Assembly (NCBI GenBank): GCA_964194555.1
Contig: CAXMMT010000007.1
Location: forward strand, 1,117-65,116
Length of the DNA: 64,000 nt
Reading direction: 5' to 3'
Origin: an uncultured Boseongicola sp.
Lineage (GTDB): Bacteria > Actinomycetota > Acidimicrobiia > Spongiisociales > ZC4RG35
The translations under genes were made by a program, and so were the position numbers. Below the pieces are notes generated by a model that saw only the letters and a program-made list of their open reading frames with translations, was not told where the DNA came from and did not search any database. This document shows, piece by piece, positions 660 to 40,541 of this stretch (the first letter of the stretch is position 1; every line of letters starts with the position of its first letter).

Positions 660-2609
660 TCAGGGCGAGAGGTGGGCCCGGACCCGCGCTGTCACGGATT
701 CGGGAGTGAAGCCGAGGCGGTCGGCAAGTTCGTCAGCAGGAGCCGAGGCACCGAAGCGGTCGATCCCGATGCTCAATCCGTCTGAGCCCACGATCGCACT
801 CCAGCCGAACGTCGATCCGGCCTCTACCGATATTCTCGGAACGGCACCGAGAACCCCGGATCGGTATTCGTCGGATTGTTCGAAGAAGAGCTCCCAGCAG
901 GGCAGGCTCACGACCCGGGCGGTGACACCTTCGCCGGCGAGTAGATCGGCGGCATCGAGTATCAACGGCACCTCTGATCCGGTGCCTATCAGGGTCACGT
1001 CACTGCCCTCTCGCACGACGTATCCGCCCTTGGCAACTCCCCCAGGGTGCGGCTCCAGCGTCGGAAGCCCCTGACGGGTGAGGGCGATAGCCACAGGGCC
1101 ATCCTTGCGATTGAGGGCAATCTCCCACGCCTCGATTGTCTCGTTGGCGTCGGCCGGACGGATCATCCAGAGGTTGGGCATGGCCCGCAGCGAGGCCAGG
1201 TGCTCGATTGGTTGGTGTGTCGGTCCGTCCTCTCCGAGGAATATCGAGTCGTGGGTCCAAACCCAAATCGAGGGGATTTTCATCAGGGCTGAGAGTCGGA
1301 CCGCGGGACGCATGTAGTCGCTGAATACGAAGAAGGTGGCTCCGTAGGGTCTGAGCCCTCCGTGTATGGCCATCCCGTTGACCAGCGCTCCCATGCTGTG
1401 CTCTCGAATTCCGAAAGGGATGTCGCGGGCGGCCGCATCGTCTTTGGCGAAGAGTCGACTCGAGTCGATGACGGTCTTGGTGGACCCGGCCAGGTCGGCT
1501 GAGCCACCTATGAATCCGGGAACCTTCTCTGCGATCTCTGCGAACAACCTTCCCGACGAGGCACGGGACGCCACCTTTTCGCCGACCTTGAAACCGGGTC
1601 CGTCCAGGGTCACCGCTGAGTTCGAGTGGAGGGAATGCCAGAGATCCTTCTGTTCTTGGGTGGCGTCGTCAAACCGGTGGTTCCAGTCGGCGTGCGCGGT
1701 TCGCCCGCGGTTCATGGCGTCGCTGAAGAAGGTGTAGACCGTGTCGTCGACCCAGAAGTCGGGATCGATCGGATAGCCCATCGCCTCTTTGGTCATCTTG
1801 ATCTCGTCGTGACCGAGCGGCTGACCATGGGAGGCCGCGGTGTCCTGAAGGTTGGGGGCGCCGTGGGCGATGTGAGTCCGACAAATGACCAGAGAGGGGC
1901 GGTCCTCTTCGGAAACGGATTCCTCGATGGCCTGGCCGATGGCCGTCCGGTCGTGACCATCGACCCTGAGCGTGTGCCAACCCTGCGCCGAGAACCTCGC
2001 GGCGATGTCCTCGCTGAAGGTCATGTCCGTTGAGCCATCTATTGAGATGCGGTTGTCGTCGTATAGGTAGATCAGCCGGCCCAGGCCGAAGTGACCTGCG
2101 ATCGAGGCGGCCTCCGAGCTGATGCCTTCCATGAGGTCGCCGTCTGAAACGAAGCCGTAGGTCCGATGGTCAACCAGATCTGGTCCAAGGCGACTGCGGA
2201 GATGGGTCTCGGCAACGGCCATTCCGACCCCCGCGGCGAATCCCTGGCCGAGGGGGCCGGTGGTCATCTCGATACCAAGGTCGTGATCGATCTCGGGGTG
2301 GCCGGCGGTGTGACTATCCCACTGCCGGAAGTTGCGGATGTCGTCGAGAGTCAGCCCGAACCCGGAAAGGTGGAGGATGGAGTAGAGGAGCATCGATCCG
2401 TGTCCGTTGGAGAGCACGAACCTGTCCCGGTCGGGCCATTCTGGAGCATCCGGGTCGACGTTGATGAACCTCGACCAGAGCGTGACCGCAATATCGGCCA
2501 TTCCCATCGGCATGCCCGGGTGACCCGAGTTGGCACTCTGGACCGCGTCCATCGCCAGAGCCTTGATCGTGTTGACGGCTAACTGCTCGGCTGATTGCGA
2601 ATTCGACAT
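660..2609 (-). CDS. tkt: Transketolase
   Basis: 649 aa. N-terminus AVNTIKALAMDAVQSANSGHPGMPMGMADIAVTLW, plus GDGDLMEG and the full-length pattern typical of transketolase. Confidence 0.97.
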   Translation of the reverse strand: MSNSQSAEQLAVNTIKALAMDAVQSANSGHPGMPMGMADIAVTLWSRFINVDPDAPEWPDRDRFVLSNGHGSMLLYSILHLSGFGLTLDDIRNFRQWDSHTAGHPEIDHDLGIEMTTGPLGQGFAAGVGMAVAETHLRSRLGPDLVDHRTYGFVSDGDLMEGISSEAASIAGHFGLGRLIYLYDDNRISIDGSTDMTFSEDIAARFSAQGWHTLRVDGHDRTAIGQAIEESVSEEDRPSLVICRTHIAHGAPNLQDTAASHGQPLGHDEIKMTKEAMGYPIDPDFWVDDTVYTFFSDAMNRGRTAHADWNHRFDDATQEQKDLWHSLHSNSAVTLDGPGFKVGEKVASRASSGRLFAEIAEKVPGFIGGSADLAGSTKTVIDSSRLFAKDDAAARDIPFGIREHSMGALVNGMAIHGGLRPYGATFFVFSDYMRPAVRLSALMKIPSIWVWTHDSIFLGEDGPTHQPIEHLASLRAMPNLWMIRPADANETIEAWEIALNRKDGPVAIALTRQGLPTLEPHPGGVAKGGYVVREGSDVTLIGTGSEVPLILDAADLLAGEGVTARVVSLPCWELFFEQSDEYRSGVLGAVPRISVEAGSTFGWSAIVGSDGLSIGIDRFGASAPADELADRLGFTPESVTARVRAHLSP

Positions 2610-3687: not shown

Positions 3688-4584
3688 TCAATCGGCCCAG
3701 GCTTCGACGGCAGCTCTTGCAATCTGCTCACCCCACTCCTGGACGAAGTGACCAGCCTCTTCGACCCGCATCGGCTCCGGGCAGTTGCGAATGATTGAGT
3801 GAATCCGCTCCATGACAGGAGGCCCCAGGACCGGGTCGGTCATGCCGATCGCCATGAAGGAGCGACCGTCGAATTGCTCGGACCACCATTTGATGGCCTC
3901 ACGGGACACCTCGACACCCCCCATCGACGGGTCGGTTGGCACCAGGGCAGGGAATGTCCGAACGCCGGCCTTGTGCTCGGGTGTGGGGAAGGGGGCGTCG
4001 TAGGCCGCGATCTCTTCGGGCCCGAGATGGGGCACGGTTTGGCCCATCAGACGCCCAACTCCGAAGTCGGGTGTCTTGGCCACATAATCTCGCCAGGCAA
4101 TGAACCCGTCGCTCGGGTTGACGCCTTTGGCGAATGCCGTGTTCATGATCAACAGACCTGAGATACGGTCCGGAAATGCGACCGGGAGGGTGAGTCCCAA
4201 TAGCCCACCCCAGTCCTGGACCACGAGGGTGATCTTGGAGAGGTCGAGGTGCTCGACGAATGCGACCAGTGCGTCCCGGTGGAAGCCGAAGGTGTACACG
4301 GCATCTTCAACAGGCTTATCCGACCGTCCGAAACCGAAATAGTCGGGCGCTACCACTCGATAGCCCGCTTCGAGAAAGACAGGGATCATCCGCCGATACA
4401 GGTACGCCCATGTCGGCTCTCCGTGCAGGCACAGCATCACCTCGGCGTCGGGAGGACCCTCGTCGATGTAGTGCAGTCGCAGCCCCTCATAGCCGGGAAG
4501 ATCTTTCACATACTGAGGGGAGTAAGGCCAGTCAGGAAGGTCGTCAAACCGGCGGTCGTCGGTGCGTAGTGCTTCGATACCCAT
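3688..4584 (-). CDS. Haloalkane dehalogenase-like alpha/beta hydrolase
   Basis: 298 aa. LHYIDEGPPDAEVMLCLHGEPTWAYLYRRMIPVF...APDYFGFGRSDKP and nucleophile block VVQDWGG, matching the DhlA/DhmA-type architecture. Confidence 0.8.
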   Translation of the reverse strand: MGIEALRTDDRRFDDLPDWPYSPQYVKDLPGYEGLRLHYIDEGPPDAEVMLCLHGEPTWAYLYRRMIPVFLEAGYRVVAPDYFGFGRSDKPVEDAVYTFGFHRDALVAFVEHLDLSKITLVVQDWGGLLGLTLPVAFPDRISGLLIMNTAFAKGVNPSDGFIAWRDYVAKTPDFGVGRLMGQTVPHLGPEEIAAYDAPFPTPEHKAGVRTFPALVPTDPSMGGVEVSREAIKWWSEQFDGRSFMAIGMTDPVLGPPVMERIHSIIRNCPEPMRVEEAGHFVQEWGEQIARAAVEAWAD

Positions 4585-4709
4585 GATTCTGACCCTACCC
4601 TGGCCACACCACCCTGATCACCAGGAACCGATTTTCATGCTTACCGGTGCGTGCCATCAGACTCAGAGAAGGATCTAGTCTTGCGTTGACTTCGGAACGG
4701 AGAACCGCG

Positions 4710-5039
4710 ATGGACATCAAGACGATCGACCGAGAAGACCTCAAAGCGAAACTCGACCGAGGCGACGAGTTCAAGCTCGTGATGACGCTCCATGATTGGG
4801 CGTTTCGCGCTCAACACATACCCGGATCGATTCACTTCCCCTCCGTTGAAGATGCTCTTGCCGGTCTCGACGTTGACGACGAGATAGTTGTCTATTGCTC
4901 GAATGTGGATTGTGTCGCGAGTCAATTTGCCTATCGGGGTCTTGTCAGCAACGGGTATACCAATGTTCGCCGATATTCGGGTGGGCTCGCCGATTGGGAT
5001 GCGGCCGGGCTTCCCCTGGAAGGCGAAGCCGCAGGCTGA
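4710..5039 (+). CDS. Rhodanese-like domain protein
   Basis: MDIKTIDREDLKAKLDRGDEFKLV...HIPGSIHF...VVYCSNVDCVASQ...YSGGLADW. This is a single rhodanese fold with an active-site loop Cys. ATG at 4710 is chosen inside the longer tracked ORF 4647..5039. Confidence 0.8.
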   Translation: MDIKTIDREDLKAKLDRGDEFKLVMTLHDWAFRAQHIPGSIHFPSVEDALAGLDVDDEIVVYCSNVDCVASQFAYRGLVSNGYTNVRRYSGGLADWDAAGLPLEGEAAG

Positions 5040-5068
5040 GGACCTGCGATTGGGACAGCAGATTCCTG

Positions 5069-5995
5069 TCAGATACCATCCTCGTTCTTCAGCCCGATCA
5101 CCTCATGGGCCACGACCAGCCCGGTCTTTCCTCGAAGGTCGAGATCAAAACTCTGCCCGAAGTCGACGTCCGGACCACAGTTCTTGAACACGATGTCCGT
5201 TACGAGCATGCTGGTCCCGGTTTCCTTGTTGGCCGCTTCGAGACGACTGGCCACGTTGACCGTGTCACCGATCGCCGTCTCGCGAGCCGATGGCTCGACC
5301 CCCATCAGGCCGAACACCACCTTGCCGTAATCGACGCCCACTCGGACTCCGAAACTCATTCCGTACATTCGCTCTACGTAGTGGGAGAGGTCTCTGGCGA
5401 TCTTGAGAACCCCAAGACCAGATCGAATCGCCGATAGGGCAGGCTTTGGCTCTCCGTCGACGCCGAACAACGCAAGGACGGCGTCGCCCATGTAGTTGTC
5501 AACTCGACCTGAGTGCGACACGACTTCCGCGCTGACGTTGTGGAAGAAGCGGTTCAGCAGATGCACAATGTCGTAGGCGGGAAGAGCATCCGCCATGGTG
5601 GTGTATCCGACGACATCGGTGAACAACACCGCAACATCCACCTCTCGACCGACCGGGCCTGTGAACGCGTGTTTCCCGATTTGTGTGGATAGGGCAATGT
5701 CGGTCTTGTCAAGCACGAGCCTGCCCAAGCTCACCGACTCTGAAGCGATGGTCTGACAGGCAAGACGAATCTCATCGGGAAAGTCGAGTCTCTCGGCCAT
5801 CGCCAATTCCTTCTCGGTGCGTTGCGACAGGTCCGACAGCCCTTCGGCGATCTTCACCCTGCAGGTCGAGCAACGGGCCTTGCCGCCACAGAGATGAGTG
5901 ATTGGGATGCCTCCCTCGACAAGGGCTGCAAGAAGGTTGACCTGACCGTCAAAAGGTATCGTCACTTCGTCTGGCCAGGTAGTGATCTCCGGCAT
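5069..5995 (-). CDS. 2Fe-2S ferredoxin domain fused to a class III adenylate/guanylate cyclase
   Basis: The N-terminal ~90 aa carry the plant-type ferredoxin Cys pattern (HLCGGKARCSTCRV...LACQT). The C-terminal part has cyclase blocks VAVLFTDVVGYTTMAD...GRVDNYMGDAVLALFG...GVDYGKVVFG. Confidence 0.85.
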   Translation of the reverse strand: MPEITTWPDEVTIPFDGQVNLLAALVEGGIPITHLCGGKARCSTCRVKIAEGLSDLSQRTEKELAMAERLDFPDEIRLACQTIASESVSLGRLVLDKTDIALSTQIGKHAFTGPVGREVDVAVLFTDVVGYTTMADALPAYDIVHLLNRFFHNVSAEVVSHSGRVDNYMGDAVLALFGVDGEPKPALSAIRSGLGVLKIARDLSHYVERMYGMSFGVRVGVDYGKVVFGLMGVEPSARETAIGDTVNVASRLEAANKETGTSMLVTDIVFKNCGPDVDFGQSFDLDLRGKTGLVVAHEVIGLKNEDGI

Positions 5996-6277
5996 GGAAC
6001 CGAGTCTATTCCCGACGGTAACGTTCTAGTTGCGGAGCGCCCGCCAGACGCCAATCAACCCAAGCAGCAGCGTCACACCGATCTTGGTGAAAGGCTTGAT
6101 GGTTGACGGTAGGTCGCTCCGAGAACGAACCATCGGGTTGATACCAGTAACGCGAGTTCTCTACTGACGAGTTTCACCGAGTGCCCGGCGGATTCGATCG
6201 TGCCTTCCGAAACCTGACTCCGGCGAACGCTGATCATCGTGTCGATCCGACGCGTGCCGGGCGGGATCGTCGCGTTG

Positions 6278-7036
6278 TCAGCAGCATGGCCGGCAGAGCT
6301 CGCATGCTCGAAACCCTGCGCTCTCTGCCTGGTCGAGTGAGCGAAAGTCGACCACGTTCTCTGTCTTGGAACGTCTGATGGCGTGACAAGTCGGGTGGCA
6401 GTAGATCTTCGTTGAAGTGTTTCCCTGAAGACGAACATGCTTTGAGGCGAGGTCTTCCAGCCAATCGGGATGCGCGCCCTCATACTCGAGCAGATCGTGC
6501 TTGTTGTCGGGCCCGCCAAGGGAGTAGTTGCCGATATGCCCATCGGCCCGGACCACTCTGTGGCAGGGAATGATCAGCGGGATCGGGTTCCGGGCGACGG
6601 CTGACCCAGCTGCCCGTATTGCTCCAGGCCGGTTCACTTCATGGGCGAGCCAGGCGTAGGGACGCACTTCGCCTTTCGGAATCGTGGCGGTCCGCGTCAG
6701 AACCTCCGCCTGGAACGACGTGACCGAGCGAAGATCGATGGGCAACCTCCCCGGTGTTCCCGCCTCGATCGCTGCGGGAATGTGCCGGCTCCATGCTGAC
6801 GGGGCCTCGGCGCGGATCAGCCTGCGGCCAAACCTGTCGGCGAACCTGTCTTCAAATGCCTGATCTGCGATGTCGACCGATGAAACACCCCCAGGATTGA
6901 AGGTGACGGCGACATCTCCGATGGCGGACTCGTAAAGGTCATATCCGTCGGCAAGGCCGGTGCCGAGGGCGACCCCTTCGGTCACCCCATCGGGCAGAAT
7001 GCCGACCAGGTTCCCAAGTTGGCTTTCGATGCTCAC
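6278..7036 (-). CDS. Methylated-DNA--protein-cysteine methyltransferase (Ogt/AGT) with a C-terminal Ada-type Zn-binding domain
   Basis: AGT active site IPCHRVVRADGHIGNYSLGG. The C-terminus IYCHPTCHAIRRSKTENVVDFRSLDQAESAGFRACELCRP matches the Ada N-terminal Cys4 Zn module. GTG at 7036 overlaps the sigma-factor TGA as GTGA. The longer tracked ORF (to 7330) would overlap the sigma gene. Confidence 0.85.
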   Translation of the reverse strand: MSIESQLGNLVGILPDGVTEGVALGTGLADGYDLYESAIGDVAVTFNPGGVSSVDIADQAFEDRFADRFGRRLIRAEAPSAWSRHIPAAIEAGTPGRLPIDLRSVTSFQAEVLTRTATIPKGEVRPYAWLAHEVNRPGAIRAAGSAVARNPIPLIIPCHRVVRADGHIGNYSLGGPDNKHDLLEYEGAHPDWLEDLASKHVRLQGNTSTKIYCHPTCHAIRRSKTENVVDFRSLDQAESAGFRACELCRPCC

Positions 7037-7548
7037 TGTTCCTCCTCGATTGTCTGCTTGAGCCGGGCCAGGCCCCGGTGAATATCTGCTTTGACCGTGC
7101 CTTCGGGTCGGCCGGTTGATTCGGAGATGTCGCTGATTCCCATTCCGACGACATGGCGGAGTACGACAGCCGTCTTCTGATGACCGTTGAGATGGCTGAG
7201 CCGGCGCTCCCATGCCTGTCCGTCGGGGAGTTCGGGGTCTGATTGACCTGTCTCGATCATCCCGACATAAGTGGGTCGTCTCGATCTGTCTCTCAGGTGG
7301 TTCCGTCCCAGGTTGAGGGCGATTGTCCACACCCAGGGCTGGAGATTGATCCCCCTGATCCGAGCCGTGTCATAGCCGGAGAGTGCCTGGTAGGCCCTTA
7401 TGAATGTCTCCTGGGTCAAGTCCTCCGCCTCCTGGTGGTTTCCGGAGAGACGGCGAAGACCCCAATAGATCCTCTTTCCCATCTCATCGACCACCCTCGG
7501 GAACGCCCCGTCCAGATCGGTGGCAAGGGCGGGTCCAATCTCGTTCAT
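7033..7548 (-). CDS. ECF-type sigma-70 family RNA polymerase sigma factor
   Basis: 171 aa. Region 2 is EAEDLTQETFIRAYQAL...WVWTIALNLGRNHLR. Region 4 HTH is KTAVVLRHVVGMGISDISESTGRPEGTVKADIHRGLARLK. Confidence 0.9.
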   Translation of the reverse strand: MNEIGPALATDLDGAFPRVVDEMGKRIYWGLRRLSGNHQEAEDLTQETFIRAYQALSGYDTARIRGINLQPWVWTIALNLGRNHLRDRSRRPTYVGMIETGQSDPELPDGQAWERRLSHLNGHQKTAVVLRHVVGMGISDISESTGRPEGTVKADIHRGLARLKQTIEEEQ

Positions 7549-7613
7549 CAGCAGTCAGAACCCCAACGGGGATAATTCGGTTGCACCCTCTTGACGGTAC
7601 CTATCGTGGGGGC

Positions 7614-8294
7614 GTGGAATCTACGAGCATCGAACAGGCTCTTGCAGCTGCCGAGGCGCAGGTCGCGGCCGGGCATGGGCTCGCTGGTACCCGATTCTGG
7701 GCGGCTGTCGCCGAGGTGAAGACGAACGACGGGTTGGTTGAGAGTTACGCCGCCCGGATTGCTTCTATCGACCAGGCAGCTTTTCCCCAATGGGCTCTCC
7801 TCACGATGCCGAAAGGCCTGGGGACAACTCTGGCGTTTCTGGGCACGGCCACCGGGCTGATCCTCGTTGGCGCCAGTTATCCGCTGGATGGGTTGGCGGC
7901 AGTCCTCGTGTTCTACCTCGGTCTTGGGGCTCTGCTCGCCTCAACTCACGCCCTTACCCACCTGATCGTCGGGCAGATCCTGGGTATTCGATTCACCGGC
8001 TGGTTCATTGGCTCGCTGACCCGGCCTCAACCTGGCGTGAAGATCGACTACGAAAGCTATCTGCGCACCCCGGCGATTCGTCGGGCATGGATGCATGCTT
8101 CTGGGGCCATTGTCACCAAGATCATCCCGTTCGTTCTGATAGGCGCAGCCATCGCTGCGGGATTGCCGACATGGGCTGTTCTCGGGCTAGCGGTGATCGG
8201 AATCGTGACGATTGTCACCGACATGCTGTGGTCGACAACCACTTCCGACTGGATGAAGTACCGCAGGGAGATGAAGTTCGCTCAGACGTCCTGA
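7614..8294 (+). CDS. Integral membrane protein, unknown function
   Basis: In-frame GTG at 7614 lies just past the divergent sigma gene. There are several hydrophobic spans (LAFLGTATGLILVGASY..., IIPFVLIGAAIAAGLPTWAVLGLAVIGIV). No family recognised. Confidence 0.55.
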   Translation: MESTSIEQALAAAEAQVAAGHGLAGTRFWAAVAEVKTNDGLVESYAARIASIDQAAFPQWALLTMPKGLGTTLAFLGTATGLILVGASYPLDGLAAVLVFYLGLGALLASTHALTHLIVGQILGIRFTGWFIGSLTRPQPGVKIDYESYLRTPAIRRAWMHASGAIVTKIIPFVLIGAAIAAGLPTWAVLGLAVIGIVTIVTDMLWSTTTSDWMKYRREMKFAQTS

Positions 8295-9934
8295 TCGGGA
8301 ACCGGAATCGACCCGTCTACCTGGTGCAGTTCCTCGTGTGTCGCCACCAGGTCGTCAAAGTCGGGCGGTTGCTCGACGTCGATCGCGATGAGATGACGGG
8401 TCTTCGGACCATCGCCTCGGTCGAAAGAGCGAGCATGCGCGATCAGGGCTGCTGCTGTGTCATCTATCCGGGTGTGCTGTGCCAGATGCTTTTCCCAGCT
8501 CTCCACGGCGAAGAGTTCGGTCAGGCGTGTGGGGTCCGACGTGTTTCGGAACAGACGCCACCGATAAGCCCCAGTGCTCAAGCGCACCAGGCGGATCTCG
8601 TTCATGATGTCGGCAAAGGCAGCAAACTCCGCCTCGTTGATCGTCCATGTGTTGAGGACGATCACCGGTCCTCCTTCGAGTGTGATCTCGGTGTGTGGCT
8701 GAACAACGCGTTCGGGGGTGAACTCCGGCGTTTCGATGTCATCGATTCGGGGTACCCCGAATCGGGGGCTAATCAGACCTATGACCAATGCTCCGGAACT
8801 GAAAACCACCAGCGACCCGCTGGTACCGATCTGGTCGGCGACCATTCCGGAGAGAATCGAGCCCAGGGGGAGGATCCCGGCAAATGCGAGCGTGTAAAGC
8901 GACATCGCCCTACCCCTGATCCACTCCGGCGCCATCAGTTGGGCACTGGCGTTGAGTGTGGAGAGAGTCAGCAGCCAAAAGAATCCGACGAGAATCATCG
9001 CTACGCCTGCGATCACGAGATTGGGCGCGAGACCGAGCATGATTCCCGATGCTCCGAATAGCGTGATCGTGTAGGGGACCAGATTTCCCTCGAGGCGCCT
9101 CAGGATCTTGGGTCGGAGGAAGGCGCCGGCGAGCGCGCCGACTCCCATTGCCCCGAGCAGGATGCCAAACATGGCGGCGCTTCCCCCGAGATAGTCGGTG
9201 TGCACCGGCAGAGTGGCCTGGACCACGGCGGAAGTCAGAGCAAAGAGCGCAACCAGGGCAAGCAGGTTGCGAAAGGCAGGGGTGAAGCGGGCGAAGCGGA
9301 TTCCGAGGGTTATCGCCGACCCCATGGAAGCCGTTTCGCGTTCTCGAACGGCGAGTTGGGGTCCGATTATCAGCAGGACCACGATTACCGCGATGTAGGT
9401 GAGGGAGTTGATCGCGAAACCCGCCTCGGGTCCGAAGGCGACGATGATCACTCCACCCACCGCCGGACCGACTGCGCGAGCAGCGTTGAAGGCAGCCGAC
9501 TGGAGCGCCACCGCTGATGCCACCATCCCGCGTGGAACCAGATCTGGAACAAGGGCCTGCCATGCCGGGATGTTGAGTGCCAGCCCGGCTCCGAGTACAA
9601 GTCCGAGGCCAAGTAGCAGAGGGGGGTTGATCAGGTCCATGTAAGTGAGAACCGCCATGGCCACCGCTGATCCTCCCATGATCCCTTGCGCGATCAGCAT
9701 CAGCTTGGTCCGGTCGAAAATGTCCGCCAGAGCACCTGCAGTGAGAGATAGAAAGAAGAGAGGAAGAAGGGAAGACGCCACCATCCAGCCAACCCACGTG
9801 CTCGATCCGGTCAACTCGAACATCAGCCATGAGGCCGCAACGGCCTGGATGAAGGTGCCCGAGGCCGAGAAGACGGTTGCTCCCCACAACGAGCGGAAGT
9901 GGGGGTACTTGAGGGGCGCAACTGCCGACGTCAT
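8282..9934 (-). CDS. MFS transporter with an extra ~150-aa cytoplasmic C-terminal domain
   Basis: 550 aa. About 12 TM N-terminal body (MFS_3/EntS-like beginning FRSLWGATVFSASGTFIQAVAASWLMF). The soluble tail reads VIVLNTWTINEAEFAAFADIMNEI...ESWEKHLAQH, resembling a dimeric alpha-beta barrel/ABM-like fold. Confidence 0.8.
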   Translation of the reverse strand: MTSAVAPLKYPHFRSLWGATVFSASGTFIQAVAASWLMFELTGSSTWVGWMVASSLLPLFFLSLTAGALADIFDRTKLMLIAQGIMGGSAVAMAVLTYMDLINPPLLLGLGLVLGAGLALNIPAWQALVPDLVPRGMVASAVALQSAAFNAARAVGPAVGGVIIVAFGPEAGFAINSLTYIAVIVVLLIIGPQLAVRERETASMGSAITLGIRFARFTPAFRNLLALVALFALTSAVVQATLPVHTDYLGGSAAMFGILLGAMGVGALAGAFLRPKILRRLEGNLVPYTITLFGASGIMLGLAPNLVIAGVAMILVGFFWLLTLSTLNASAQLMAPEWIRGRAMSLYTLAFAGILPLGSILSGMVADQIGTSGSLVVFSSGALVIGLISPRFGVPRIDDIETPEFTPERVVQPHTEITLEGGPVIVLNTWTINEAEFAAFADIMNEIRLVRLSTGAYRWRLFRNTSDPTRLTELFAVESWEKHLAQHTRIDDTAAALIAHARSFDRGDGPKTRHLIAIDVEQPPDFDDLVATHEELHQVDGSIPVPDQDV

Positions 9935-9968
9935 GCCCGCAGCGTAGATGTCGGTCTAGGTTTGGCCT

Positions 9969-10625
9969 GTGGTCCGCGATCTCGCCTACTTCGTCCAGGA
10001 TGACGCCGGCCCCGGACCGGGGGTGTTGATACTTCATTCCTTTTGGGGGCTGACCTCTTCGGTGAAGAATCTGGCCGATGGTCTCGCCGACAGGGGTTAT
10101 ACGGTTCTGGCCCCGGATATCAACTTCGGTGAGCTGCCCGAGTCGGAGCAAGACGCCCTCAACCACCTCGGGGACGCCAGTCCCGACCGTCTCGCCTCGC
10201 TGGTCATCTCCTCGGCCAGGTTGCTTCATGAGAGATCGACTGAGGGTCAGATCGGAATCGTCGGATTCGGGATGGGCGGGTCGCTCGGTTTGTGGGCTTC
10301 GGTCCGTCTCGCGGATCTTGTCGGCGCCGCAGTTTCGTTCTACGGAACCCAGCAAATTGATTTCGCCGGCTCCAAATCGTCCTATCTCATCCATCTGGCG
10401 GAAGAGGACGAGTTCATCACTCACGACGAAGTCGCCTTCATGGAGGCGACCATGGGTCTCGAGTCATTGCCAGTCGACGTGGTGCGTTACCCGGGAACGA
10501 AGCACGGCTTTTGTGAGCCTGATGGTGACACTTTCCACCCGGACGCCTTCGAGGGCGCTTGGACTACGACACTCGCTTTTTTCGCTGCCCAGCTCTTCCG
10601 GATCGAAATGGGAGACCGGCGATAG
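9969..10625 (+). CDS. Dienelactone hydrolase family protein
   Basis: 218 aa. GVLILHSFWGLTSSVKNLADGLADRGYTVLAPD, nucleophile block VGFGMGG and C-terminal YPGTKHGF. Confidence 0.8.
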   Translation: MVRDLAYFVQDDAGPGPGVLILHSFWGLTSSVKNLADGLADRGYTVLAPDINFGELPESEQDALNHLGDASPDRLASLVISSARLLHERSTEGQIGIVGFGMGGSLGLWASVRLADLVGAAVSFYGTQQIDFAGSKSSYLIHLAEEDEFITHDEVAFMEATMGLESLPVDVVRYPGTKHGFCEPDGDTFHPDAFEGAWTTTLAFFAAQLFRIEMGDRR

Positions 10626-38763: not shown

Positions 38764-39879
38764 ATGTCGTTCCAGATCGGCCCACTTGTCGTTGACCCCC
38801 CGGTGGTCCTTGCCCCGATGGCAGGCGTGACCAATGCTCCGTTTCGCCGTCTGTGCCGCGAGTTCGGGGCGGGTCTCTACGTCTCGGAGATGATCGGCGC
38901 CAGGAGTCTTGTGGAGAAGAGCGAGAAGACGATGGCTCTGGCCCGTTTCGACGACGATGAGAGCCCCAGATCGATTCAGCTTTACGGCACCGACCCGGGA
39001 GCTCTTGGTGAGGCGGTTGCCTTTCTTGTCGAAGATCACGGGGTTGACCACATCGACATGAACTTCGGATGCCCGATGGGCAAAGTGACGAAACACGGAG
39101 GAGGGGCCGCCCTCCCCTGGAAGACCAGCCTGTTTCGTTCTGTAGTTCGCGCCGCGGTCATGAACGCCGGCGATGTCCCGGTGACGGTGAAGTTCCGGCT
39201 GGGCATCGACGAGGAACACCTGACATTCATCGACACCGGCCTGATCGCCGAAGAGGAAGGAGTTGCCGCGGTCGCACTCCACGCCCGCACCGCCCGCCAG
39301 TTGTACTCAGGCAAGGCCAGGTGGTCGGCGATCCGTGAGTTGAAGGAGGCGGTGACCACCGTGCCTGTGGTTGGTAACGGTGACATCTGGACGGCGGACG
39401 ACGCTCTCGAGATGATGCGTTCAACCGGTTGTGATGGAGTCGTGGTTGGCCGCGGGTGTCTCGGGCGCCCCTGGTTGTTCCGGGACCTGGCCGACGTGTT
39501 CGCGGGACGCCAGGCCCAGGTTCCGCCAAATCTTGGCGAGATTGGTCGGATCATGCTCCGCCATGCCCAACTGCTGGTTGACCACTTCGGAGAGAAGGTC
39601 GGTCTCAACCTCTTCCGCAAGCATCCCTCGTGGTATCTGAAGGGCTTCCCTGTTGGACCGGTTCTTCGTGATGGCTTCGCCAGGGTGGCCTCGATCGAGG
39701 AGTTGACGTATCTGGTCGGGAGGCTCGATCCGGATGTCCCGTTTCCTGAAGAGGCCAATCGCATGGTTCGTGGGCATAGTCACGGGCCACGTCCGGTGCG
39801 TCTACCCCACGGATTTCTCGACGATCGGGAAGCCGAGCGGGTAGCCGACGAGGCCGAGCAGGTGGTCAGCGGCGGCTAG
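38764..39879 (+). CDS. dus: tRNA-dihydrouridine synthase
   Basis: VVLAPMAGVTNAPFRRLCREFGAGLYVSEMI...IDMNFGCP...VTVKFRLG. Confidence 0.9.
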   Translation: MSFQIGPLVVDPPVVLAPMAGVTNAPFRRLCREFGAGLYVSEMIGARSLVEKSEKTMALARFDDDESPRSIQLYGTDPGALGEAVAFLVEDHGVDHIDMNFGCPMGKVTKHGGGAALPWKTSLFRSVVRAAVMNAGDVPVTVKFRLGIDEEHLTFIDTGLIAEEEGVAAVALHARTARQLYSGKARWSAIRELKEAVTTVPVVGNGDIWTADDALEMMRSTGCDGVVVGRGCLGRPWLFRDLADVFAGRQAQVPPNLGEIGRIMLRHAQLLVDHFGEKVGLNLFRKHPSWYLKGFPVGPVLRDGFARVASIEELTYLVGRLDPDVPFPEEANRMVRGHSHGPRPVRLPHGFLDDREAERVADEAEQVVSGG

Positions 39880-40504
39880 AGGACTCACTAGGGCTCCTTT
39901 TGAGCTGCGTCGCCACCTCGACCTCGCTGCGGGTCGAGTGGTATCGGGTCAGCATCAGTATCGAACCGACCAGACCGACCACCGAGAATGTGAGAATCCC
40001 GACGTCGGCCCAGAACCATCCGTAGTACCCCCAGAGGAAGGCCTCTGCAATCCCGATCCACCACGTCCCCGGTGAGATGCCGGAAGGGTCGGCGGTGCGA
40101 TACGCGGTCCAGACCGAGGGGGTGAGCATCACTCCGTAGGACAATCCGAGAATCACTCCGAGTGCTGTCCATCCTGCGACAAGTGCTGTTGTGGCGAGCA
40201 GGACACCCCAGACTGCTCCCAACAGACAACTCTGCCGAGGATCGCGCCCGGTCCGAACCAGCGCCCACATGGTCAACGCATACGCAACGACGGTGAACAC
40301 GGGAGCGAGGATCGCGATCCAGAATCCTTGACTGACCAAATAGGCGGCCCACCCGACATTGGTGACCAACCCCAGGGATGCCCAGGTGGTCGAGACGCCG
40401 GATGAGTCACCGGTTCGGATCAGCTTGGAGATCTGTGGAACCAGAAAGGCAATCGTGCCAATGGTGGCGGCCACAACGGCAATGTTGGCCAGTGTCTCGT
40501 TCAT
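39866..40504 (-). CDS. PQ-loop / SemiSWEET-like repeat membrane protein
   Basis: 212 aa, ~7 TM. FLVPQISKLIRTGDSSGVS is a PQ-loop-type motif. Its 3' end overlaps the dus 3' end by 14 nt (convergent). Confidence 0.55.
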   Translation of the reverse strand: MNETLANIAVVAATIGTIAFLVPQISKLIRTGDSSGVSTTWASLGLVTNVGWAAYLVSQGFWIAILAPVFTVVAYALTMWALVRTGRDPRQSCLLGAVWGVLLATTALVAGWTALGVILGLSYGVMLTPSVWTAYRTADPSGISPGTWWIGIAEAFLWGYYGWFWADVGILTFSVVGLVGSILMLTRYHSTRSEVEVATQLKRSPSESSSRR

Positions 40505-40541
40505 CGGTAGTTAGAACACCATTCCGGGTCGTCTGGTTGCA

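Follow-up and report, generated by a model that had tools for sequence, protein, structure and literature searches.

A conserved sigma factor and alkyltransferase gene pair as a candidate self-regulated alkylation-response module in Acidimicrobiia

Two catalogued groups within the extracytoplasmic function (ECF) sigma factors, ECF122 and ECF203, are encoded next to genes for DNA alkyltransferases, and a gene pair of this kind is the subject of this study: an ECF sigma factor gene that overlaps the gene for an O6-alkylguanine-DNA alkyltransferase (AGT) with an Ada-type zinc domain (Ada-Zn) at its C-terminus. The pair is located in a stretch of 64,000 nucleotides from an uncultured Boseongicola sp. 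(GTDB class Acidimicrobiia; contig CAXMMT010000007.1, positions 1,117 to 65,116), referred to here as the window. ECF122 has reportedly also been attributed to Huang et al. 2015. As described in the published classification, ECF122 is actinobacterial, has no anti-sigma factor and is followed at position +1 by a 6-O-methylguanine DNA methyltransferase (MGMT) gene (Casas-Pastor et al. 2021, Nucleic Acids Res 49:986; bioRxiv 10.1101/2019.12.11.873521). Its traits include the promoter CTCAC-Xn-CGTCTAC, a cysteine in sigma region 2 and a shorter linker (Casas-Pastor et al. 2021). ECF203 occurs in Actinobacteria only and also has MGMT at +1, with 1.22 Ada_Zn_binding domains per ECF; its neighbours are TetR and major facilitator superfamily (MFS) genes, it has no conserved promoter, is probably not autoregulated, and has neither a recognised anti-sigma factor nor a characterised member (Casas-Pastor et al. 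2021). A 2022 review files ECF122 under 'unknown mechanism' and presumes that ECF203 is controlled at the level of transcription (de Dios et al. 2022, PMC8999054). Our literature searches found no experimental study of the mechanism of a sigma/alkyltransferase pair, and sigma factors go unmentioned in a 2023 review of alkyltransferases.

An earlier note on this DNA, made from the sequence alone, took the pairing for one outside the described ECF groups, which was wrong since ECF122 and ECF203 were already catalogued. The gene pair itself is thus known at the catalogue level, and the new part would be an ECF sigma/anti-sigma module with an unprecedented sensor. Comparisons of sequences from many genomes show that the two-gene module is ancient and conserved, and that it shares homology with modules whose corresponding repair protein is joined to a bona fide anti-sigma domain; it also appears to be self-regulated. 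Our preferred interpretation, to which we assign a probability of roughly 0.55, is that the two genes would constitute a self-contained, autoregulated alkylation-response module in which the partner protein holds the sigma factor inactive until it is consumed by repair.

The gene pair and its conservation

The sigma gene encodes a protein of 171 aa (P0002) and the partner gene one of 252 aa (P0001); both are on the minus strand (Table 1). The TGA stop codon of the former is shared with the GTG start codon of the latter in the sequence GTGA, which reads TCAC on the plus strand at 7033-7036, in agreement with the overlap described earlier, and a strong Shine-Dalgarno sequence, GAGGAGG, is located inside the end of the sigma gene, 5 nt before the GTG. 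A longer open reading frame (ORF) starting at 7330 was rejected, and the GTG at 7036 taken as the real start of the partner, because the extension is an Arg/Pro-rich out-of-frame overlap with the sigma gene.

A species-genome scan returned 22 loci, 16 of them with both genes, and a sample of 401 Actinomycetota genomes contained full-length matches to AGT plus Ada-Zn in about 33, spread over the window's own order and the families f19, f23 and f24. A sigma homologue ends at the partner start in 16 of the 16 two-gene loci from the first scan, and all 28 phylum-sample loci with upstream DNA contain a sigma gene directly upstream on the same strand, with 32-62% identity to the one in the window. 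The neighbourhood survey suggested in the earlier note thus found the pairing in 44 of 44 two-gene loci from four or more Actinomycetota families, with the sigma gene immediately upstream of the partner in each and identities ranging over 32-100% for the sigma factors and 40-100% for the partners. The stop/start distance was -4 in 33 of these pairs and between -17 and +4 in the remainder. The overlap persists over roughly 60% sequence divergence, and the surrounding genes differ. The adjacency of the sigma and partner genes is not a matter of chance, and the idea that they are merely neighbours with no functional link is effectively refuted by its presence in every locus and by the overlap conserved across families and phyla with differing neighbours; we give it almost no credence.

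The domain content of P0001 was examined with Pfam, an AlphaFold2 model (predicted local distance difference test score, pLDDT, 90.3; predicted template modelling score, pTM, 0.85) and Foldseek, and all three bear out the reading of an Ogt-type AGT with a C-terminal Ada zinc domain. PF01035 (DNA_binding_1) matches residues 107-187 (E 1e-26, 93 bits, cut-off 27). The active site is IPCHRVV with the cysteine at residue 158 (codon 6563-6565), and its PCHR is invariant over more than 40 relatives. The protein matches PDB 1sfe in sequence (E 2e-18), and its model fits the whole of this two-domain C-Ada structure (template modelling score, TM, 0.81; 164/165 residues), confirming the AGT N-domain and PCHRV site noted before. 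Pfam gave no match to Methyltransf_1N in P0001, although the fold of the N-domain is present in the model.

The Ada-type domain was recovered as PF02805 (Ada_Zn_binding) at residues 205-250 (E 4.3e-14, 52.7 bits, cut-off 23). The match spans profile positions 20-64 of 65 only, with the first ~19 positions missing, and the N-terminal helix of the Ada zinc domain is consequently taken to be absent. Residues 208-250 align to N-Ada 33-74, so that C213, C217, C245 and C248 correspond to C38, C42, C69 and C72 of Ada; this upholds the proposed match to the Cys4 site of the E. coli N-terminal domain and makes C213 the counterpart of Ada Cys38. The ligand spacing is C-x3-C ... C-x2-C, and the two cysteine pairs are separated by 27 residues and not by 26 as first counted. 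The last ~60 residues of the model fit methylated N-Ada 1u8b (Foldseek, probability 1.00, 64 columns), and all relatives with the domain have the four zinc cysteines. As previously claimed, P0001 has no AraC-family helix-turn-helix (HTH) domain in Pfam and NCBIfam searches (HTH_AraC, HTH_18). Judged from these matches, P0001 is a complete AGT followed by an Ada-type zinc domain, with alkyl transfer presumed by homology. It is the sole cysteine-bearing AGT detected in its own genome, which is 84% complete, and is regarded as the only catalytic AGT found there because the other MGMT-family ORF has no active-site cysteine. That short ORF, outside the window on contig C94 (L024 about 1522-1767, plus strand), has PWWRV instead of PCHRV and looks like an alkyltransferase-like (ATL) protein.

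The sigma factor P0002 was identified by Sigma70_r2 (E 2.4e-14) and Sigma70_r4_2 (E 2.4e-11). It contains no cysteine at all, and its region 2 has an insertion of 4-5 residues with the pattern AL..Y(D/P)..R(I/C)..L.L.PW. Among 47 sigma factors paired with AGT plus Ada-Zn partners, including the modules with a zinc-binding anti-sigma (ZAS) domain described below, 45 have the insertion, which is missing from five ECF paralogues of the same genome and from sigma factors linked to partners that consist of AGT only.

These simpler modules bear on the role of the zinc domain. In one locus of the same family, L028, the sigma gene, promoter, AGT and N-terminal extension of the partner have all been kept and the Ada-Zn domain is gone without trace. 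Among 20 AGT-only genes sampled from other Actinomycetota, 14 are located behind an overlapping ECF sigma gene in the same operon layout. The sigma-linked AGT-only proteins have an N-terminal extension of 30-45 aa, and one unlinked AGT (L097) has none. Since L028 and the AGT-only modules retain the pairing without Ada-Zn, the domain probably provides an accessory input and not the core switch, and the weight placed on it as a switch in the earlier note was probably overstated. The sigma factors of the AGT-only modules show traits of ECF122, namely the cysteine in region 2 (DDCFQE) and, in several loci, a CTCAC -35 element.

Anti-sigma domains in homologues of the partner

One locus from Longimicrobiales, L019, at first appeared to lack a sigma gene, and closer reading revealed a diverged ECF sigma gene whose end overlaps the partner gene by 11 nt. 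The partner encoded there, P0124 (297 aa), begins with MRC...H-x3-C-x2-C, the hallmark of class I anti-sigma domains that bind zinc. When P0124 was searched against a database, >2,000 matches were obtained, the named ones from Gemmatimonadota and Acidobacteriota; the best 120 were 244-316 aa in length, nearly all 289-306, and about half of these 120 had precomputed zf-HC2, DNA_binding_1 and Ada_Zn_binding domains. In our own searches, zf-HC2 scored 24.6-26.5 bits, over the cut-off of 22.2, in four of the five ZAS-type proteins tested, P0124, P0184, P0226 and P0229 being among those with the domain. Residues C3, H29, C33 and C36 are invariant in the ZAS-type proteins. In all four contexts that were inspected (L019 and three independent contigs) the gene follows an ECF sigma gene with an 11-nt overlap, and the neighbours are otherwise unrelated.

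The AlphaFold2 model of the ZAS-type protein has four helices ahead of the AGT domain, and this N-terminus fits the anti-sigma factor RslA (3hug) by fold (probability 0.99, TM 0.65). Its sequence matches in the PDB were four, all to anti-sigma factors (RslA, ChrR and DdvA) and each of them weak (E 0.09-1.4). In a profile alignment, residues 4-251 of P0001 were matched to columns 48-295 of the ZAS-type proteins with E 1e-83 and 39% identity, which places the first 28 residues of P0001 on the segment past the CxxC, where the class I anti-sigma domain has the last part of helix 3 followed by helix 4. This extension has helices at residues 3-11 and 20-26; its residues L7, L10 and V22 do not vary, and P15 hardly does. 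Residues 1-11 have a pLDDT <50 in isolation although they are conserved, as would be expected for a candidate partner-binding element. The N-terminal extension of P0001 is thus a candidate sigma-binding segment, and perhaps the insertion in region 2 of these sigma factors helps the contact with such a two-helix anti-sigma element.

Promoter, candidate regulon and proposed mechanism

A predicted promoter, TGCAACC-N17-GTTCT, ends 8 nt before the ATG of the sigma gene with no Shine-Dalgarno sequence in between, so the transcript is probably leaderless. A promoter of this type was found 8-10 nt ahead of the sigma start in most loci of every clade: as TGCAACC-N17-GTTCT in the window's own order and, at the same position, as TGAAAC-N16/17-GTGTT in families f19 and f24. 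No match was obtained in a few of the most distant loci, such as L032-L034. A -35 element of the form GnAAC with GTT at -10 is typical of ECF promoters. The conservation of an ECF-type motif at the sigma start indicates, as a prediction, positive autoregulation of a leaderless sigma-partner transcript.

A genome scan for the strict motif yielded only three occurrences in the 2.1-Mb genome, with 0-2 extra copies in relatives. The second copy in the window ends 8 nt before the ATG of a gene for a membrane protein of 212 aa that resembles PQ-loop proteins weakly (PF04193, E 7.6e-4, 19.6 bits, under the cut-off of 22); the gene is situated directly after the hut genes. Its orthologues in five other genomes of the same genus and in one of another genus (G017) have kept the -35 and -10 elements with a variable spacer, and the gene is a candidate regulon member. 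The search for a wider regulon found no AlkB or AlkA_N, and the Mpg gene was without the motif. The third strict copy is outside the window (C32:39349-39376, plus strand); its spacer is 16 nt long, and the next ATG lies 29 nt downstream. The 23 matches in a relative's genome, G160, were rejected as a regulon: they belong to a dispersed repeat (L057-L084; 22 copies of TGCAACCC..CAACGA(C/T)CGGTTCT with a 16-nt spacer) that mimics the promoter and is unrelated to the sigma factor.

Assembled into a mechanism, these features suggest the following cycle. The ECF sigma factor would transcribe its own leaderless operon from the conserved TGCAACC-N17-GTTCT motif, and translational coupling, to which the overlap and the Shine-Dalgarno sequence point, would yield the sigma factor and the AGT plus Ada-Zn protein together. 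The unmethylated partner would keep the sigma factor inactive by means of its N-terminal helices, which by homology could be a remnant of a class I zinc anti-sigma domain. Repair would irreversibly methylate Cys158 (from O6-methylguanine or O4-methylthymine) and, where the zinc domain is present, Cys213 as well (from methylphosphotriesters), both reactions being those expected by homology at intact motifs. The spent partner would then let go of the sigma factor through conformational change, sequestration on DNA or degradation, and the free sigma factor would give more sigma factor and fresh repair protein until surplus unmethylated partner re-sequesters it. At least one further target with the same promoter, the PQ-loop-like membrane protein gene, may respond along with the operon. 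Tentatively, the partner could thus be an anti-sigma factor that senses its own consumption, releasing the sigma factor by irreversible self-alkylation at Cys158 and/or the zinc-bound Cys213, with a minimal two-helix anti-sigma remnant in the actinobacterial form.

Several observations weigh against inhibition by the partner. Helices 1-3 of the anti-sigma domain are missing from P0001 together with every zinc ligand, and the protein may for that reason have lost the inhibitory function; nor does Pfam recognise an anti-sigma domain (zf-HC2) in it, as stated from the outset. The anti-sigma-like role proposed in the earlier note is therefore upheld in part, by the ZAS-fused homologues behind overlapping ECF sigma genes, and not by a recognised domain in P0001 itself. 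No natural fusion of sigma factor and partner was found among close relatives, where a concatenated query gave only 250-aa partners; long open frames of ~474 aa were rejected as fusions, being artefacts that run out of frame from stop to stop in high-GC DNA. The sigma tree does not unite all MGMT-linked sigma factors, since paralogues from the window's own genome fall into the same polytomy and those of f24 are placed outside; with the tree unresolved, monophyly of the MGMT-linked sigma factors was dropped and the shared region-2 insertion was used as evidence instead. Finally, these groups are entered as 'without anti-sigma factor' in the published classification, where ECF203 is proposed to be under the control of TetR.

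The missing helices and the published view would both fit a simpler scheme, in which the sigma factor only drives the repair gene, the truncated partner no longer binds it, and control is exerted through transcription, proteolysis or another regulator. The tiny predicted regulon, with three strict motif copies in the genome, also favours this scheme. A co-expressed inhibitor is, however, normally needed under positive autoregulation, and a positively autoregulated promoter without one would lock on. The N-terminal extension that aligns to anti-sigma helix 4 is moreover under purifying selection, as seen from the invariant L7, L10 and V22, the stop/start overlap has been kept over all of the divergence mentioned above, and no TetR gene is present among the ORFs examined between 3.7 and 10.6 kb. 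Overall, we consider this scheme unlikely.

Activation rather than inhibition by the partner can also be envisaged. The methylated partner would, like Ada, gain affinity for DNA through an electrostatic switch in the Ada-Zn domain and recruit or stabilise the complex of sigma factor and RNA polymerase as a co-activator. The intact Cys4 site and a GTAC-centred block that close relatives conserve immediately upstream of the -35 element would agree with such a role. So would the contact that methylated Ada of E. coli makes with region 4 of sigma70. On the other hand, P0001 has no AraC-type sequence-specific HTH, the pairing can dispense with Ada-Zn (L028 and the 14 AGT-only modules), the domain found in homologues is an inhibitory anti-sigma domain and not an activator domain, and the GTAC block is conserved within the family only and may serve the divergent gene as its promoter. 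We judge co-activation to be improbable and retain inhibition of the sigma factor by the unspent partner as the preferred interpretation.

Table 1. Positions in the window of the two genes, the domains of the partner protein and the predicted promoter elements
Feature	Position	Strand	Evidence and remarks
ECF sigma gene (P0002, 171 aa)	7033..7548	-	Pfam Sigma70_r2 + Sigma70_r4_2, NCBIfam sigma70-ECF
Whole partner gene (P0001, 252 aa)	6278..7036	-	GTG overlaps sigma TGA; GAGGAGG in sigma end
N-terminal extension of partner, residues 1-28	6953..7036	-	Aligned to ZAS-type columns 48-70
Two-domain O6-alkylguanine-DNA alkyltransferase (N-domain + DNA_binding_1 C-domain)	6476..6952	-	PF01035, 1sfe match
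Ada-type Cys4 zinc methyl-acceptor domain, residues 205-250	6287..6424	-	PF02805, N-Ada alignment, Foldseek 1u8b
Predicted sigma-dependent promoter	7557..7585	-	TGCAACC (-35, 7585-7579), N17, GTTCT (-10, 7561-7557)
Second motif copy, TGCAACC-N17-GTTCT	40513..40541	-	Ends 8 nt before ATG of PQ-loop-like gene
212-aa membrane protein, candidate regulon member	39866..40504	-	Weak PQ-loop match, promoter motif

The genes around the pair were also inspected. A gene for a 226-aa multi-pass membrane protein (7614-8294, plus strand) is divergent from the sigma gene, with the start codons 65 nt apart; Pfam found no domain in it, and the divergent arrangement has been kept within the family only (14 loci). 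The family-only conservation and the lack of a Pfam domain were the grounds on which this protein was not adopted as the true anti-sigma factor. The DNA separating the start of the divergent gene from the -35 element of the sigma gene contains the conserved GTAC-centred block (TAGGTACCGT / TAAGTACGGT), which may be the divergent gene's own promoter or an operator. Two genes away from the sigma gene is an MFS_3 transporter gene (8282-9934, minus strand, E 2e-129). The product of the gene 3' of the partner (5069-5995, minus strand) combines a 2Fe-2S ferredoxin domain with a class III nucleotide cyclase in one protein (Pfam Fer2 + Guanylate_cyc), and the gene has no visible link to the sigma module.

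Comparison with known systems

To our knowledge, the Ada paradigm is the only explanation of how bacteria induce alkylation repair. Ada of the E. coli type is estimated to be conserved in only about 17% of sequenced genomes (2023 review, PMC7617703). The module is distributed over several families of Actinomycetota, and its ZAS-fused form over Gemmatimonadota and Acidobacteriota. If the proposed mechanism is true, it represents a second and simple route from irreversible DNA-repair chemistry to transcription, in which alkylation is measured by the rate at which a suicide enzyme is consumed, and the two-helix remnant represents an anti-sigma contact of a new, minimal class. The module supplies a concrete candidate regulator for the 'orphan' groups ECF122 and ECF203, and a sigma factor/suicide enzyme pair could, with its compact promoter, be put to use as an orthogonal biosensor for alkylation.

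Among the catalogued groups, ECF203 resembles the window module in that both MGMT and Ada_Zn_binding are present in the +1 protein, an MFS_3 gene is close by and no anti-sigma factor is recognised. It differs in that no TetR was found among the ORFs scanned at 3688-10625 of the window and in that a conserved promoter is present at the sigma start. With ECF122 the module shares its actinobacterial origin, MGMT at +1 and the lack of a recognisable anti-sigma factor. The window sigma factor is, however, without cysteine, has the extra insertion in region 2 and is preceded by TGCAACC-N17-GTTCT, and the partners of ECF122 have not been reported to bear Ada_Zn. Because three published traits of ECF122 are missing, the window sigma factor is not assigned to this group, and the published trait descriptions agree better with its placement in ECF203 or an unclassified group.

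The class I ZAS factors (RsrA, RslA and ChrR) are likewise soluble proteins whose genes overlap, and are co-transcribed with, that of an ECF sigma factor, and in the window module too, thiolate-zinc chemistry could serve as the sensor. A true zf-HC2 domain, with C...H-x3-C-x2-C as its ligands, is present in full-length homologues of P0001, whereas P0001 itself lacks helices 1-3 and the HxxxCxxC and has only the segment aligned with helix 4 left. The proposed signal also differs, being an irreversible alkyl transfer from DNA and not a reversible oxidation of thiols. The similarity to E. coli Ada (PDB 1adn, 1u8b, 1zgw and 1sfe) consists of the Cys4 zinc acceptor for methylphosphotriesters, the PCHR acceptor for O6-alkylguanine and an operon predicted to be positively autoregulated. 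In contrast to Ada, P0001 has its domains in reverse order, no AraC-type HTH and an Ada_Zn match that lacks the first ~19 profile positions, and the output is predicted to pass through a dedicated ECF sigma factor rather than through direct binding to a promoter.

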